A stretch of DNA of 64,000 nt from Gemmatimonadota bacterium (GTDB taxonomy: Bacteria > Gemmatimonadota > Gemmatimonadetes > Palauibacterales > Palauibacteraceae). Position numbers and translations under genes: made by a program. The stretch lies in assembly GCA_039588275.1 (NCBI GenBank), contig JBDHAC010000017.1:42246-106245 (forward strand), written 5' to 3'. Under the pieces are notes generated by a model. It was given only the letters and a program-made list of their open reading frames with translations. It did not search any database and had not been told where the DNA came from. This document shows, one piece after another, positions 1 through 49,597 of this stretch (its first letter is position 1; each line of letters begins with the position of its first letter).

Positions 1-91
1 CTCGAGACCTTCTCCGAGCCTCGACCTCCTCGAACCGATGGCCTACGTTTACGAGGGCCTGATCCATACCCCCCGACGGGCCGCGCTGGTC

Positions 92-2938
92 ATGGACGCA
101 ACTGACTGGGAGCCTCTGAAACGGCTGTTCGAGCGGGCCAGCGCGTTGCCTGCGGAGGAGCAGGCTGCCTTCCTTGAGAGCGCCTGCGCAGACGACCCCA
201 GTAAGCAAGCCCAACTCGAGTCGTTGTTGGCTGCCGCCCAGGAAGCCAACCCCTTTTTCGACAGCCTCGCCGATGCCGTCCTCTCGCTCCCGCAATGGAC
301 GGACGATTCAACCCCCTCTGCGGCTGCGGAACCCGATCCCTTGATCGGTCGGACGGTCCACCAGTACCGGATCGACGAGAAGCTCGGAAGTGGCGGCATG
401 GGGGTCGTGTACCGCGCACTCGATACCGGTCTCGACCGAACGGTCGCGCTCAAGTTCCTCCCGCACCACCTGCGTGCGGACGACGCAGCCACGGAACGCT
501 TCCTGGTCGAGGCCCGGGCCGCGGCGGCCCTGGACCACCCGAACGTGTGCACCGTGCACGAAATCGGGGAGGACGAGGACGGGCGGCAGTTCATCGCGAT
601 GGCCTGTTACGAGGGTGAGACGCTCAAACAGAAACTCGAGCGGGGGCCGCTCCCGATCGACGAGGCGATCGATTACGCGCATCAGATGGCGGCTGGGCTC
701 GGGGCTGCACACGCACACGACATTGTTCACCGAGACATCAAGCCGGGGAATGTGATCGTCACGCCGGAAGGTGTCGTCAAGGTCCTGGACTTCGGCCTGG
801 CGAAGCTGACCGATGTCACCCTCACTGGCACGGGCACCACGCTGGGCACGGTGGCCTACATGTCGCCGGAGCAGATCCAAGGCGAAGGAGTGGATCGGCG
901 CACGGACCTGTGGTCACTGGGCGTGGTGCTGTACGAGATGCTGACTGGCGATCGCCCGTTTAAAGGGGACTCGACGGCGGTCGTGCTTCACGCCATCCAG
1001 CACGAGGATCCGCTCCCGCCCTCCGTTCTGCGGTCGGAAGTTCCACCGGAGATCGATGCGGTTGTCGGGCAACTGATCACAAAGGACCCCGAGCAGCGGC
1101 CCGAGAGGGCCGAAGCTATGGGCCTGGGCAGCGGCGAGACGACCGTGCCCAAAGGCGTGTTCGGCAGGCCGACCGGGTTGGCGCGGCTCCGCTCGTGGCA
1201 GACCGTGGCGGTTCTGCCCCTCCTCGCCGTGGCCATCATCGTGGGCTGGGGGCTCACCCGCCCGTCGGGTCCGTCTCTCGCGGTGCCGCGGACGGCGATC
1301 GCTGTGCTGCCGTTCGAGGACTTGAGCGTCGAGGCCGAGCATGCCTACTTCGCGGCCGGACTGCACAGCGAATTACTGACCCAGCTCATGAAGGTGGCGA
1401 TGCTCACCGTCACGGCGCGCACGTCGGTTCTGGGCTATGCAGATACGTACAAGCCACTCTCGGTGATTGCAGACGAGCTGGGCGTGGGAAGCATCGTCGA
1501 GGGCAGCGTCCAGGTCCTTGGCGATCGCTTGCGGGTGAATGTGACGCTCTTGGATGGCGAGACCGGCGGGGACCTCTGGGCCGACAGCTATGGCGGCACG
1601 TTGGAGGACGCCTTCGCGGTCCAGAGCGCCATCGCCCAGCAGGTGGTGGTGGCGATTGGAGGGGTCCTCACAGAGACCGAGGCGAGCGCGATTGCCACGC
1701 CGCCGACCGCCAATCCCGAGGCGTACCTGCTCTACTTGCAAGGCGAGGAGTACCGCACGCGGCGGACGAGTTTCGAGCCAGACCTCGAGATCGCACAGCA
1801 GTTTTACGAGCGGGCTCTCGCCATCGACTCGACGTTCGCGCTCGCGTATGCCTCGCTGTCCCAAGTCCACGCATTTCTCTACTGGATGGGACACGACCCG
1901 TCCCTCGGGCGGCTCGAGCGCCAGCGTGAGGCGGCGGAGGCGGCGCTCCGACTCGCCCCCGATCTTCCGCAGGCACGCTGGGCCATGGCGCTGGTGCACT
2001 ACTATGGTGAGCGGGACTACACCCGGGCCCTCGAGGAGCTAACCGCCGCGGTTGAGGAGCTCCCGGGATCCGCCGAGCTGTGGATCTTTGTCGGTGCCTT
2101 ACACCGCCGTTTGGGCCAATGGGATCATGCGGTGGCCGCGTTCGAGAAGGCCACGGCGCTGGACCCGCGCAACGCGAGTTCCATCGCCGAGGTCGGTAAT
2201 ACGCTCGAGTTCCTGCATCGCTATGAGGAGGCCATCGCGGCGTTTGACCGGGCATTGAGATTGGCCCCGGACACTTGGTGGTGGCAGTTGACCAAGGCCA
2301 CGATTTATCTCCGCTGGCTTGGTGAACTGGATACACTACGGAACACCCTACTGCGTGGACCCGAGGACTACGGCCCTTATGGCAGCCGGAACCTGTGGAG
2401 GGCGCGGTTGGCGCTCTGGGAGCGGGAGCCGGACACGGTGTTGGCGCTGCTCGCTGCGCCCGAGTCGGTGACGTTTGAGACGCAGGGTTCACGTGAGCCA
2501 GGGTTGCTGTACGTCGCGTGGGCCCACCAGCTACGTGGGGATCGTGAGGCCGCAGCTCGAGCCTTCACGGGTGCGTTGGCGCAGGCGGATTCGTTACTGC
2601 GCGAGTTCCCCGACGATTGGCGTCTGCGCGTATCACGGGGTCTGGCATTGGCCGGCGTGGGGCATGGAATGGAGGCACGGGCGGAAGCGGAGTGGCTTCG
2701 TGCGAATGTGCTGGGTCAGCATTACGACCGATCTAGGCGGTCCATCCATCACGGGCGTGCACGACCTACGGCTCGATCCACGGTGGGATCCGATCCGCGA
2801 CGATCCACGGTTCCAGGCCCTCCTGGAACGCTACGAGTAGCAGCCGAGTCACCGAGGCACCACCGCCGAGCCGATCGGCTGACCCATCAGATTCCTATGC
2901 CGCGTAACAGCCCGACGCACAACGCGAACTCGAGATAG
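92..2938 (+). CDS. Hanks-type Ser/Thr protein kinase with TM segment, TolB-N-like and TPR domains; C-terminus disrupted by frameshift/deletion
   Basis: Kinase motifs LGSGGMGVVY, VALK, HRDIKPGN, DFG, YMSPEQ; hydrophobic segment; IAVLPF motif; TPR-like helices. Start ATG 92 (MDATDWEPLKRLF) preferred over 38. The family-typical end LRLDPRWDPIRDDPRFQALL is in another frame ending at TAG 2840. Confidence 0.85.
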   Translation: MDATDWEPLKRLFERASALPAEEQAAFLESACADDPSKQAQLESLLAAAQEANPFFDSLADAVLSLPQWTDDSTPSAAAEPDPLIGRTVHQYRIDEKLGSGGMGVVYRALDTGLDRTVALKFLPHHLRADDAATERFLVEARAAAALDHPNVCTVHEIGEDEDGRQFIAMACYEGETLKQKLERGPLPIDEAIDYAHQMAAGLGAAHAHDIVHRDIKPGNVIVTPEGVVKVLDFGLAKLTDVTLTGTGTTLGTVAYMSPEQIQGEGVDRRTDLWSLGVVLYEMLTGDRPFKGDSTAVVLHAIQHEDPLPPSVLRSEVPPEIDAVVGQLITKDPEQRPERAEAMGLGSGETTVPKGVFGRPTGLARLRSWQTVAVLPLLAVAIIVGWGLTRPSGPSLAVPRTAIAVLPFEDLSVEAEHAYFAAGLHSELLTQLMKVAMLTVTARTSVLGYADTYKPLSVIADELGVGSIVEGSVQVLGDRLRVNVTLLDGETGGDLWADSYGGTLEDAFAVQSAIAQQVVVAIGGVLTETEASAIATPPTANPEAYLLYLQGEEYRTRRTSFEPDLEIAQQFYERALAIDSTFALAYASLSQVHAFLYWMGHDPSLGRLERQREAAEAALRLAPDLPQARWAMALVHYYGERDYTRALEELTAAVEELPGSAELWIFVGALHRRLGQWDHAVAAFEKATALDPRNASSIAEVGNTLEFLHRYEEAIAAFDRALRLAPDTWWWQLTKATIYLRWLGELDTLRNTLLRGPEDYGPYGSRNLWRARLALWEREPDTVLALLAAPESVTFETQGSREPGLLYVAWAHQLRGDREAAARAFTGALAQADSLLREFPDDWRLRVSRGLALAGVGHGMEARAEAEWLRANVLGQHYDRSRRSIHHGRARPTARSTVGSDPRRSTVPGPPGTLRVAAESPRHHRRADRLTHQIPMPRNSPTHNANSR

Positions 2939-3055: not shown

Positions 3056-3140
3056 TGCCGGAGGAGGGACTCGAACCCTCAAGGGACTATGTCCCACCGG
3101 ATTTTGAGTCCGGCGCGTCTGCCAGTTCCGCCACTCCGGC
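3056..3140 (-). tRNA. tRNA-Leu(CAA), intact, CCA not encoded
   Basis: Reverse complement GCCGGAGTGGCGGAACTGGCAGACGCGCCGGACTCAAAATCCGGTGGGACATAGTCCCTTGAGGGTTCGAGTCCCTCCTCCGGCA folds as a cloverleaf with a long variable arm and CAA anticodon. Confidence 0.97.
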
Positions 3141-3229
3141 GTGTCGTCAGAAACAGCTTGCACGCTACAACCCAGCAGCGTTCGGCCACTTTCGGTTTCG
3201 GCGTGCTGGGCGGCTCTGCTGGGCGAGGT

Positions 3230-3385
3230 TTACTTGACCTCCCGCAGCTCCACCCCGTGTGTCACGACCTTGAGCATCGTCGCATCGTCGGGCTGTTGAT
3301 ACGCCTGCTTGAGCGCCTCCAAGCTACTCCAGTCTACCGCCTGTGCAACGTCCAAACCGGGCAGGCCCTTCCGCAACTTGCCCAC
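3230..3385 (-). pseudogene. C-terminal fragment of a tyrosine recombinase/integrase
   Basis: Manual translation VGKLRKGLPGLDVAQAVDWSSLEALKQAYQQPDDATMLKVVTHGVELREVK*, resembling the RK.LP..DVA...W.S...L...YQQ region with the catalytic Tyr. In-frame stop just upstream (3416-3418). Not in the ORF track. Confidence 0.7.
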
Positions 3386-3758
3386 AGCGGAGTCTCTGGG
3401 AGCTCTCCTGCCCTCCTAGCCCCGAACGCCCGTTCTCCGCCCGAACCCGCCCAGAGAACCCGTCCATTCGAGACCGATCGCGTCAGCGGTCGCGCTATTA
3501 CGCGGCAGAGGAATCGTCTGGGTCAGCAGAAACGGGTGTAGGCGCGTCAGATCGGAAACGTATCGGACCACCTGTTGGACCCACATCCACAGGCGGTCGC
3601 ATCGTGAACGTCACGGCGGGACCTCATTTGACCCCAACCGCTCACGCCCCGCTCCGCCACGACCTGCTGCAGTCTGCGCTGTGCCGCGACGCCATGCGCG
3701 GCGCCCGAATCTGGCCCGCGCCTCTGGGGCAAGCCCCTTGTCGTGGTGATCTGAGCCG

Positions 3759-5967: not shown

Positions 5968-6913
5968 CCCATCCTCCTTCCTTCTTAGGTAGGCCGGCGG
6001 AGCTTGGGCGCTCCGCCCGACGGGGCTGACGACCGGGAAGTCGGTTCTCCCGGTCTGCGCTTTGATCCTGCTGCCAGACAGGATCGTGGGCGCGATCGCC
6101 CGCGGTGAACGGTGGGGACGCACGAGAACCCTCCCGGCTTTCCCTCCCTCGCGCCGTCGTCGCGGCGCTCGGGAGGAGTGGCTAGGAGACAGATTTCGTG
6201 GGCTCCAAGGAACGATCGGTCGAATATGCGAGGAACATCCGGACTCGTTCCCTGTAAGTTGGACTTGCCAAACACGTGCGCCCCCTGTGGGTGTCGTGTT
6301 GCGGTAGCTGTCAGCTGGTGAGTTCCGTCACAGAGCCGCCAGCTGGCAGCTTTCTTGTTCTATGGTCGCCCGTCCCGCTCATCCCCGCTGGGAACTAGGC
6401 AGTCGCCTCCTTATATCCGCCAAGAACGAGAAACGGGACGCAACCCACAGGCTACGCCCCGCTATTACTTTTCGTGGCTGTTCGAATTGGTCGGGTTAGA
6501 GAGTCCGCGAGACGTGAGCCGAGTTCGGTGCGAAGGGAGAGCTACGGGAGCGGCAAACCACTCAGGAGGTAGGCACCGTAGGATCCTGATGCTCATGCCC
6601 AAGACCCGCGCAAAAGACCACTTCCGCCCCGAGCCACAACCCACCAACTCTTGCAGTCTACCAGACCCGCACACGCACCGGCAAGAGGCGTTCGGCAAGA
6701 GGGGGACTAGACACCGCACCACCGACCTCGGGCGAAGGGGCGTCAGCTAACGAATTGCGCGTCAGGGGAGTTGGTTGTCCGGAAGAAGAGCAGCATAGGG
6801 GGCCTTCTGCTTCGCTAGGTCAGCCCATCCGAGCTCGAGCTATACGCTGGGATAGCGAAGAAAGGCTCGTGGCGTATGGCGTTCCAGCGAAATACGCCGG
6901 AGTGGCGGGCCGC

Positions 6914-6952
6914 TTTTGAGTCCGGCGCGTCTGCCAGTTCCGCCACTCCGGC
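6914..6952 (-). repeat. Orphan 5' half of tRNA-Leu(CAA) (att-site duplicate)
   Basis: Identical to tRNA positions 3102-3140, from the 5' G through anticodon loop CTCAAAA, then diverges. Confidence 0.93.
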
Positions 6953-7095
6953 GAGTGGAGTGATTAGTAAGGCCGAGCGAGCGCGTTCGCTACTGTCGGT
7001 TGTCTCGGGTTCTGCCCCCTCAACTCTCTGAATCGCGCACTGCAATCCACGCGTACGCATGGGTGAACCTGACACGGTTACCTGGAGGCCCCCGC

Positions 7096-48664: not shown

Positions 48665-49597
48665 TCACATGGCAGGCATCGGCACCGCGTTAGTGAGTCC
48701 CCAATGGAGCTTCCACGACCCGTCATCCATCTCGCGACACAGGACCAGGTACGTCCCCGTCCGGGTCACGCTCTGGCCCTCGACGGTTGCCTCGACCGAC
48801 CAATGACCGCGGTCCACGGCCCAGCCCTCACCGAGCACCAGGGTCTCGGCATCCATGATCGCGAGCTGGGGGGACCCTTCCGCCAGCTCTGCCGCAACCG
48901 CCGCCTCGATCGCCGTACGTCCGCTCGACGCCGGCACCTCGGCAAACATGGCGACGCCGTCCTCGGTCCACAGGTCGGCCACCATCGGCGCGTGGCCCGC
49001 GCTGTAATGCTCGGCGTACGAAGCGATCAGATCCGCGAGCGGCCCACCGCTCACCGCCTCGGTCTCCACGGTCTCCGGCCCCGGCATCGGGATCGGGGGC
49101 GGCGCATCGCCGTTCACGGCCAGCCGGTGCAGCCGCAGGCCGTCTGCGGTCAGGCGAGAGAGGCTCATGTAGTAGCCGCTCAACGTGACGGCCTCACCGC
49201 CCTCCGGAGTAACCTCTTGCGAGTAACTGCCCCGGTCCACCACCCAGTCCCCCACCATCACCTGCTCGGCCGGGTTGATCGTGAGCGTCGGCGAAAGCGC
49301 GGCGATCGACGCTTCCGTGGATGCGATGATCGCCTCGCGGCCCTTGCTCACGGCCGAGTTCGCACCGAGGACGATCGCGTCGTCGGCGTACAGGTCCGCG
49401 ACCATGGTCGCGTGACCGAGGTTGTAATGCTCTTCATAGTTGGCCGCGAGGGTGGCGATCAGCGCACCCGCGTTTGCGTACTCCTGCGTGGTGGCCTCCG
49501 CCGTTTCGGCTGCTCCTTCGGCCGCCTGCTCGGTGTCGGGAGCGCACGCTCCGACCAGGAGACCGAATACGACAGGAATGGCTGAACGAAACTTCAC
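48665..49597 (-). CDS. Lipoprotein with two SnoaL/DUF4440 (NTF2-like) domains
   Basis: Lipobox VGAC; internal duplication YEEHYNLGHATMVADLY / YAEHYSAGHAPMVADLW and WVVDRG / WAVDRG. Confidence 0.8.
   Translation of the reverse strand: MKFRSAIPVVFGLLVGACAPDTEQAAEGAAETAEATTQEYANAGALIATLAANYEEHYNLGHATMVADLYADDAIVLGANSAVSKGREAIIASTEASIAALSPTLTINPAEQVMVGDWVVDRGSYSQEVTPEGGEAVTLSGYYMSLSRLTADGLRLHRLAVNGDAPPPIPMPGPETVETEAVSGGPLADLIASYAEHYSAGHAPMVADLWTEDGVAMFAEVPASSGRTAIEAAVAAELAEGSPQLAIMDAETLVLGEGWAVDRGHWSVEATVEGQSVTRTGTYLVLCREMDDGSWKLHWGLTNAVPMPAM

Follow-up and report, generated by a model that had tools for sequence, protein, structure and literature searches.

The question raised by this locus is why a 5' half of tRNA-Leu(CAA), apparently left behind by the integration of a mobile element, is followed after a five-nucleotide linker by an antisense copy of its own first 13 nucleotides. 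The original prediction, made on the same 64,000-nt stretch of Gemmatimonadota DNA (the window), had offered either a symmetric or hairpin recombination substrate or an RNA device acting on the truncated tRNA.

An element that restores tRNA-Leu(CAA) from its 5' side

To all appearances, the locus is a decayed 3.8-kb tyrosine-integrase island that restores tRNA-Leu(CAA) from the 5' side (Table 1). The tRNA was called by ARAGORN at 3056-3140 on the minus strand, and an exact 40-bp direct repeat (3102-3141 and 6914-6953), reaching from nt -1 to the last anticodon-loop base, is common to it and the orphan half. Two genomes of the same genus (G001 and G002) have an uninterrupted tRNA locus, and the DNA upstream of the orphan half is in synteny with it; this places the half at the host end and makes the 3,772 bp from one repeat to the other the element. 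The geometry is that of a full tRNA with a same-orientation 5' fragment upstream, the fragment lying in its native host context. The original prediction was right that the junction is an att site and that the arm belongs to the element; the arm heads a conserved element end, termed E here. The three dyad-like motifs within E are probably accessory-protein sites, and the AT-rich box on the host side is probably a host promoter element.

The integrase remnant alone gave no Pfam hit; its identity to PF00589 proteins reaches 85%, two of these proteins being labelled Gemmatimonadota, and W387 and Y397 are invariant in the alignment. The 8-bp repeat of 3206-3226 flanks both ends in related elements, and the paired arm-type-like repeats that close E in six other copies are absent from the window copy. 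With its integrase apparently reduced to a remnant and its host-side arm-type-like repeats gone, the window element is evidently defective; no intact integrase linked to an E end was found. The integrase clade is present in 30 of the 145 genomes of the order, an intact member lying upstream of tRNA-Leu(CAA) in G486 C46, and at the 30 loci examined the full tRNA was co-directional in 10, convergent in 9, and not called in 11. Across these loci (L401-L430), the tRNA gene ~100 bp from this one clade is of many types and may point either way, which suggests repeated flips between 5'- and 3'-restoring use. A large-serine-integrase reading of the locus was discarded, since the enzyme concerned is a tyrosine integrase and the identity of the junctions stops at the loop, not at the dyad center.

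Two further features adjoin the island. Window positions 2875-2927 and 3478-3530 form a 53-nt inverted repeat (77%), each copy shortly past the end of a kinase gene or remnant. Downstream of the same tRNA-Leu(CAA), a second island, of the 3'-fragment type, occupies G000:C17:41875-45385 (the window up to 3055 plus the 370 bp before it; G000 is the genome of the window); it holds an inverted, D-loop-truncated E copy and then the kinase gene at window 38-2938.

Table 1. Positions, within the window, of the features of the island and its two junctions
Feature	Positions	Strand	Remarks
Restored full tRNA-Leu(CAA)	3056..3141	-	3102-3141 is the 5' half supplied by the element
Two direct 8-bp repeats	3206..3226	-	Putative arm-type-like integrase sites of the element's other end
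Tyrosine integrase remnant	3230..3385	-	Last 47 of ~419 residues; conserved Trp and presumed catalytic Tyr kept
Pair of arm-type-like repeats	3437..3454	+	Inverted orientation; remnant of another end
Remnant of a Ser/Thr kinase-TPR gene	3604..3688	-	3' end; resembles C21:45593-48970
Cargo ORF, 165 aa	3759..4256	-	N-terminus lipoprotein-like, judged from sequence
Cargo gene, 520 aa	4405..5967	-	BNR/Asp-box repeats (below the Pfam cut-off)
Conserved element end E	6790..6894	-	Three ~17-bp dyad-like motifs: 6875-6891, 6843-6859, 6811-6826
U-rich tail	6887..6894	-	Right behind the stem; U in 4 of the first 5 bases; identical in 7/8 copies
Antisense arm	6895..6908	-	6896-6908 antisense to tRNA nt 1-13; one more base pairs with nt -1; 7 whole homologous arms
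Linker NCGGC, 5 nt	6909..6913	-	Predicted to pair with the 5' strand of the anticodon stem
Orphan 5' half of tRNA-Leu(CAA)	6914..6953	-	Nt -1 to anticodon-loop end (loop 6914-6920); host-side junction; 40-bp exact repeat, synteny with G001 and G002
AT-rich box	6961..6970	-	Also present upstream of the native tRNA-Leu(CAA) in G001 and G002

The inverted repeat and its predicted fold

Sequence comparison reproduced to the base both repeats of the original prediction, namely a perfect 14-bp inverted repeat (6895-6908 and 6940-6953, spacer 31 nt) and a perfect 15-bp inverse between 6894-6908 and 3128-3142 at the other junction. Thirteen of the 14 pairs correspond to tRNA nt 1-13 and the fourteenth to nt -1. 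Perfect 14-bp inverted repeats with 20-40-nt spacers occur only six times in the 4.1-Mb genome, and the probability that the 13-mer of the arm would occur by chance no more than 60 nt from a particular tRNA half is ~1e-5. Half plus arm is predicted to fold at -37.7 kcal/mol on the tRNA-sense strand (z = -5.0, with 0/200 shuffles equally stable) and at -24.5 kcal/mol as a DNA hairpin. No Rfam match was obtained at an E-value <= 1 over 6790-6953, the arm plus E.

The dyad is centered within the anticodon stem, 14 bp away from where symmetry about the 7-nt loop would put it. When register was tested about a 6-8-bp overlap, the best match fell at a shift of -14 and the in-register identities (6/26) were those of background; a dyad this far out of register with the anticodon loop argues against a recombination palindrome. 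The idea of a tRNA half inside a palindrome, serving as a symmetric recombination substrate, is thereby weakened, the more so as the tyrosine integrase has separate arm-type-like repeats. If nt 14-26 are left out of the half, linker and arm together are its reverse complement. Identity of the direct repeat between the two junctions stops exactly at the anticodon-loop edge; any point within the 40 bp fits the crossover, whose position is unreadable from polymorphisms because the two tRNA halves are identical.

Recurrence of the arm and its match to the target tRNA

The arm heads the conserved ~130-bp end E in eight copies from 4/145 related genomes of the order. BLAST with E over the 145 genomes gave seven strong places in four genomes, and the eighth copy (G001) came from other searches; three weak matches (G503, G004, and G053) were rejected as chance. 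A second intact case is found in the same genome at tRNA-Leu(UAA) (C21:49107), likewise at the native host position. Its element carries, ahead of the restored tRNA, a ~25-bp close mimic of the host tRNA promoter region (G000:C21:52030-52064 versus 49075-49106).

The eighth copy is cut inside the arm; the seven whole arms, set against nt 1-13 of their cognate tRNAs, gave 84 Watson-Crick pairs, 7 G·U pairs, and 0 mismatches over 91 positions. The three distinct departures from Watson-Crick pairing are all G·U on the tRNA-sense strand only, the C21 copy folding at -35.1 kcal/mol as sense RNA versus -31.5 on the other strand; by a hand estimate, three such G·U-compatible changes would arise by chance with a probability of roughly 0.04-0.33. 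Opposite tRNA nt 6 the arm has T in 2/2 CAA copies and C in 6/6 UAA copies (the target of one of these, C21b, being assigned from its location), and a UAA-type arm would mismatch the CAA tRNA at that position. The switch is a single base and may represent one or two events, between which the E tree does not discriminate. Recurrence and covariation with the target, put forward at the outset as the check on the arm, are thus both observed, and eight copies with a CAA/UAA switch refute a one-off template-switch duplication.

An intact half is kept in only two of the eight E copies, both in this genome. The other six retain arm sequence with a decayed or missing partner: one partner is decayed, four copies are cut at about nt 12-22, and one is cut inside the arm. 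Hairpin cleavage by SbcCD (PMC4787754) is a lead, nothing firmer, for the origin of the cuts. Such cleavage falls on the loop side. Conservation is 87% in the arm, 88% at the start of E, and 78% in its middle, and the linker is CAA-like even in UAA copies. Kinase genes behind five E copies, and the window cargo, run in the read-through direction, whereas the C21 cargo is antisense. In 5/8 copies (window 38-2938, C21:45593, L003, L008, and L446), what comes after E is a gene of one and the same Ser/Thr kinase-TPR family, often with no tRNA-Leu nearby.

Orphan tRNA-Leu halves in other lineages

Pattern searches covered the order, the class, an alphaproteobacterial order, a second phylum, metagenomes, and viral contigs (30/64 viral parts). 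Together with earlier loci they yielded 111 distinct orphan Leu(YAA) halves in 56 lineages; 175 native-like genes, 26 matches without a recognizable 5' start, and five that were too short were set aside. An arm to nt 1-13 (shift -14) was present in only one of the 56 lineages. Among the truncated copies set aside, L228 (G049), which has a different end, carries an 11-nt arm and then a T-rich tail, its cognate 5' end being taken from relatives. The expectation that a half with an antisense arm would be found in other genomes therefore held within the E lineage and, the truncated L228 apart, failed beyond it, with 1/56 lineages positive and the arm absent from sister lineages of the integrase clade. 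The arm is lineage-specific and not a general att architecture.

Three other lineages have extended dyads in register about the anticodon loop. Such dyads are what would be expected of DNA core sites, and the window arm is at background in register. In L112, L132, L248, L249, L251, and the L260 viral group, the element mirrors the tRNA side in register to ~20 bp, with 8-12-nt perfect blocks and with 15-16/26 identities in most of the L260 group; these are unusually long, core-like dyads. A general degenerate foldback across 5'-fragment elements, suggested by eye, failed both tests applied to it. Duplex energy versus shuffles over 21 clusters gave a mean z of -0.29 (p 0.06 versus native flanks; strand asymmetry p 0.78) in a test to which even the perfect arm is invisible (z -1.3). 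By local matching, 6/56 representatives reached p <= 0.05 versus 2/100 native flanks, mostly in-register dyads; here the window lineage was represented by its C21 copy (p 0.12), the window copy itself scoring p 0.005.

The arm pattern, run over 401 genomes of the phylum, found G000, G015, and one chance match in a coding region. Among the 120 matches listed from 5/64 parts of a GTDB-wide pattern scan, nearly all were native tRNAs, and the one orphan half (L040) had no significant arm. Metagenomes gave 0 matches to the E pattern and, with a second pattern that was one base over-long, 35 loci, mostly indel-damaged tRNAs or chance, with five usable orphans; viral scans for arm or E gave two and three matches, respectively, all chance. 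Orphan Leu(UAG) halves numbered 0 in 145 genomes, and the covariation data thus concern Leu(CAA) and Leu(UAA) only. In L395 (G481:C254:9308), an integrase remnant separates tRNA-Leu(UAG) from a D-loop-truncated Leu(UAA) half with another end type, which lies 850 bp upstream. At L378-L386 and L393 (G460, G461, G484, G486, G030, and G483) and at G000:C21:45392-52150 there are units of 2-8 kb, most of them giving no integrase hit. Each ends in a conserved promoter-like stretch and a tRNA-Leu 5' half, and several are in tandem; they look like arrays of cassettes at tRNA-Leu(UAA/CAA).

Terminator-like hairpins that follow orphan halves

A custom scan of one representative per lineage recorded hairpins made of element sequence only that lay no more than 90 nt from the half, reached <= -12 kcal/mol, and had a U-tail. 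Such a hairpin was found in 18/56 lineages, versus 7/56 on the other strand (p 0.02), 22/280 shuffles, and 4/101 stretches further in, the lineages being not fully independent; with at least 6 U required, the counts were 11, 1, 5, and 0, respectively. Eleven of the 32 viral (phage-contig) lineages and 7/24 cellular ones contribute to the 18, the excess being stronger among the viral ones, and in 38/56 lineages the scan detected none. This strand-specific excess lends indirect support to the RNA-device branch of the original prediction. In the L165 group (12 copies), the element has its own terminator-like stem with a T-run, and the loop of this stem contains 6-7 nt antisense to the tRNA D arm.

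In none of the eight copies does E alone form such a hairpin within its first 100 nt. The two half-plus-arm stems (-37.7 and -35.1) are the strongest of the set, and that of the window is followed by UAUUUCGC. Terminator-like tails behind 12/46 native tRNAs of the genome have 4-6 T of 8, so the 4-T tail of E is within range; it is nevertheless weak, failing a setting of at least 5 T, and the window hairpin (4 T of 8) passes the lenient custom scan but not the stock scan (3-8-nt loop, 5 T). Conservation of the tail may have another cause because it overlaps the first dyad of E. Intrinsic (Rho-independent) terminators consist of a GC-rich stem and then an immediate U-rich run, on the transcribed strand only. 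The window hairpin is similar in its predicted stem with a weak U-rich run directly behind it, and differs in that its 5' strand is the first 13 nt of the host tRNA, its tail has 4 U, and its structured 31-nt loop is large for a terminator.

Possible function of the arm and alternative explanations

The explanation we favor, and to which we give about an even chance, is that arm, host half-tRNA, and U-rich tail form a terminator, or a decay signal, built from the host half-tRNA. It is preferred because E lacks a hairpin of its own, because half and arm make the strongest stem with a U-tail, and because other lineages bring terminator-like hairpins. A tyrosine-integrase element would insert in tRNA-Leu, likely by crossing over at the anticodon loop, and supply a new 5' half; integration would leave the host tRNA promoter pointing into the element, and in the transcript made from it the arm would pair with the leftover host half. 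If it folds so in vivo, the hairpin with its U-rich tail would stop the transcript or mark it for decay, insulating the element from the host tRNA promoter, and in the excised form, RNA that starts at the tRNA promoter of the element and runs across attP would make the same hairpin.

It is rather unlikely, though the most serious of the alternatives, that the arm is a functionless relic: the tRNA 5' half would have been duplicated in inverted orientation, with the anticodon loop as its pivot, and the copy would later have lost the 13-nt D-loop part. The copy could have arisen by template switch or by an old integration in the opposite orientation, been carried in attP, and been kept matched by quasi-palindrome correction. 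Such a history fits the shift of -14, with linker and arm complementing a half that lacks nt 14-26, the use of the integrase clade in both orientations (10 co-directional and 9 convergent among 30 loci), the survival of the arm after loss of its partner in 6/8 copies, and the CAA-like linker of UAA copies. It sits poorly with conservation of the arm at the level of the start of E (87% versus 88%, against 78% in the middle), with the 0 mismatches in 91 positions, and with the terminators that other lineages commonly have at the position of the arm, E being without its own.

That the site acts as DNA is less probable again. Here the two arms would be symmetric protein sites or would make a single-stranded hairpin attP of the integron or CTXphi kind, with exchange near the D loop; the 15-bp perfect inverse in the reconstructed attP, the DNA hairpin at -24.5 kcal/mol, the in-register dyads about the loop in three other lineages, and the cuts between tRNA nt ~12 and 22 in four E copies and L228 are all compatible with it. 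Nevertheless, the arm is 14 bp off loop register across a 31-bp spacer, the two junctions are identical exactly as far as the loop edge, the integrase belongs to PF00589 and has direct repeats of arm-type-like character at both ends, the matching far ends (element plus nt 1-17) were not found in G000 or five relatives, and sister lineages of the same clade lack the arm. Least probable, in our judgment, is an RNA device of opposite sign, in which the hairpin stabilizes or processes read-through RNA (as a 5' stem-loop or as an RNase III or RNase P substrate) and the host tRNA promoter drives cargo in the manner of an integron promoter. The weak U-tail, the read-through orientation of the window cargo and of the kinase genes behind five E copies, and the integrase-free 2-8-kb units in tandem arrays at tRNA-Leu would suit it, whereas the C21 cargo is antisense, the first window cargo gene is ~900 nt away behind a terminator-like site (6463-6432), and no 3' CCA follows the stem.

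Returning to the terminator, we tentatively extend it, at somewhat less than an even chance, to 5'-restoring elements at large: they would have to silence a strong host tRNA promoter aimed at them, many by bringing a terminator, and this lineage, like the G049 end independently, by making one from the host half with a target-matched arm that seals a potentially harmful fragment. The att site would then be a co-evolving RNA part, retuned when the target changes. The counts suggest that a terminator behind the half is the common answer and a terminator made from the half the rare one. Integration of this kind would carry a cost neglected so far, in that the host tRNA promoter fires into the element and makes half-tRNAs, and this is now testable. 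If true, att sites would be under RNA-level constraints on target choice, which bears on the prediction of attP boundaries and on integrases as tools; if the arm is a relic, this is of course an ordinary decayed island.

Comparison with known systems

Integron attC and the CTXphi attP are att sites folded from a single strand, with an imperfect foldback, a looped-out part, and small integrase-free units in arrays. The window end resembles them in its predicted imperfect foldback with a looped-out part and in the small integrase-free units in arrays; it differs in its phage-type integrase with arm-type-like repeats (PF00589 homologues).

What is new here is the terminator-like hairpin behind the half in 18/56 lineages and a recurrent target-matched arm within a known kind of island. 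The original prediction had not recognized the att architecture as a described one: its 5'-restoring geometry is known (PMC4383910; 10.1101/410191), and the antisense arm was the part for which no description was found in the open-access literature searched. The available portions of PMC4383910, 10.1101/410191, PMC8776855, 10.1101/2020.12.28.424599, 10.1101/2020.11.02.365908, PMC2951348, and PMC10865867 do not mention it.

In Islander, as far as the available text goes, 159/3919 islands have 5' tDNA fragments, with the anticodon loop as subsite A (PMC4383910). Like the window, these have the full tRNA at one end, a displaced same-orientation 5' fragment upstream, the integrase beside the restored gene, and identity that ends at the anticodon loop; unlike the window element, they come with no mention of an antisense arm or terminator in that text. 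The window element would fail Islander's integrase filter because its integrase is a remnant. Pelagiphages restore tRNA-Leu/Cys from a partial 5' end, according to the accessible text of 10.1101/410191, and there and in that of PMC8776855 the attP of pelagiphages and T7-like cyanophages in tRNA-Leu/Cys is downstream of the integrase, as here. The word "terminator" occurs 0 times in either main text, and "inverted" 0 times in that of 10.1101/410191; the phage contigs surveyed here mostly have their own terminator or an in-register dyad and not an arm to nt 1-13, and Fig. S2 of the pelagiphage preprint, with its att alignments, could be relevant to the in-register dyads. PMC2951348, in its accessible part, cites the suggestion that being coupled to tRNA promoters may be of advantage to elements. 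Tycheposon islands are tandem elements split by partial tRNAs (10.1101/2020.12.28.424599, in the part available); they belong to another phylum with other integrases, and a hairpin or terminator has 0 occurrences in that part, whereas tandem units, fragmented integrases, and scattered partial tRNAs are what they share with G000, G460, G461, G484, and G486.
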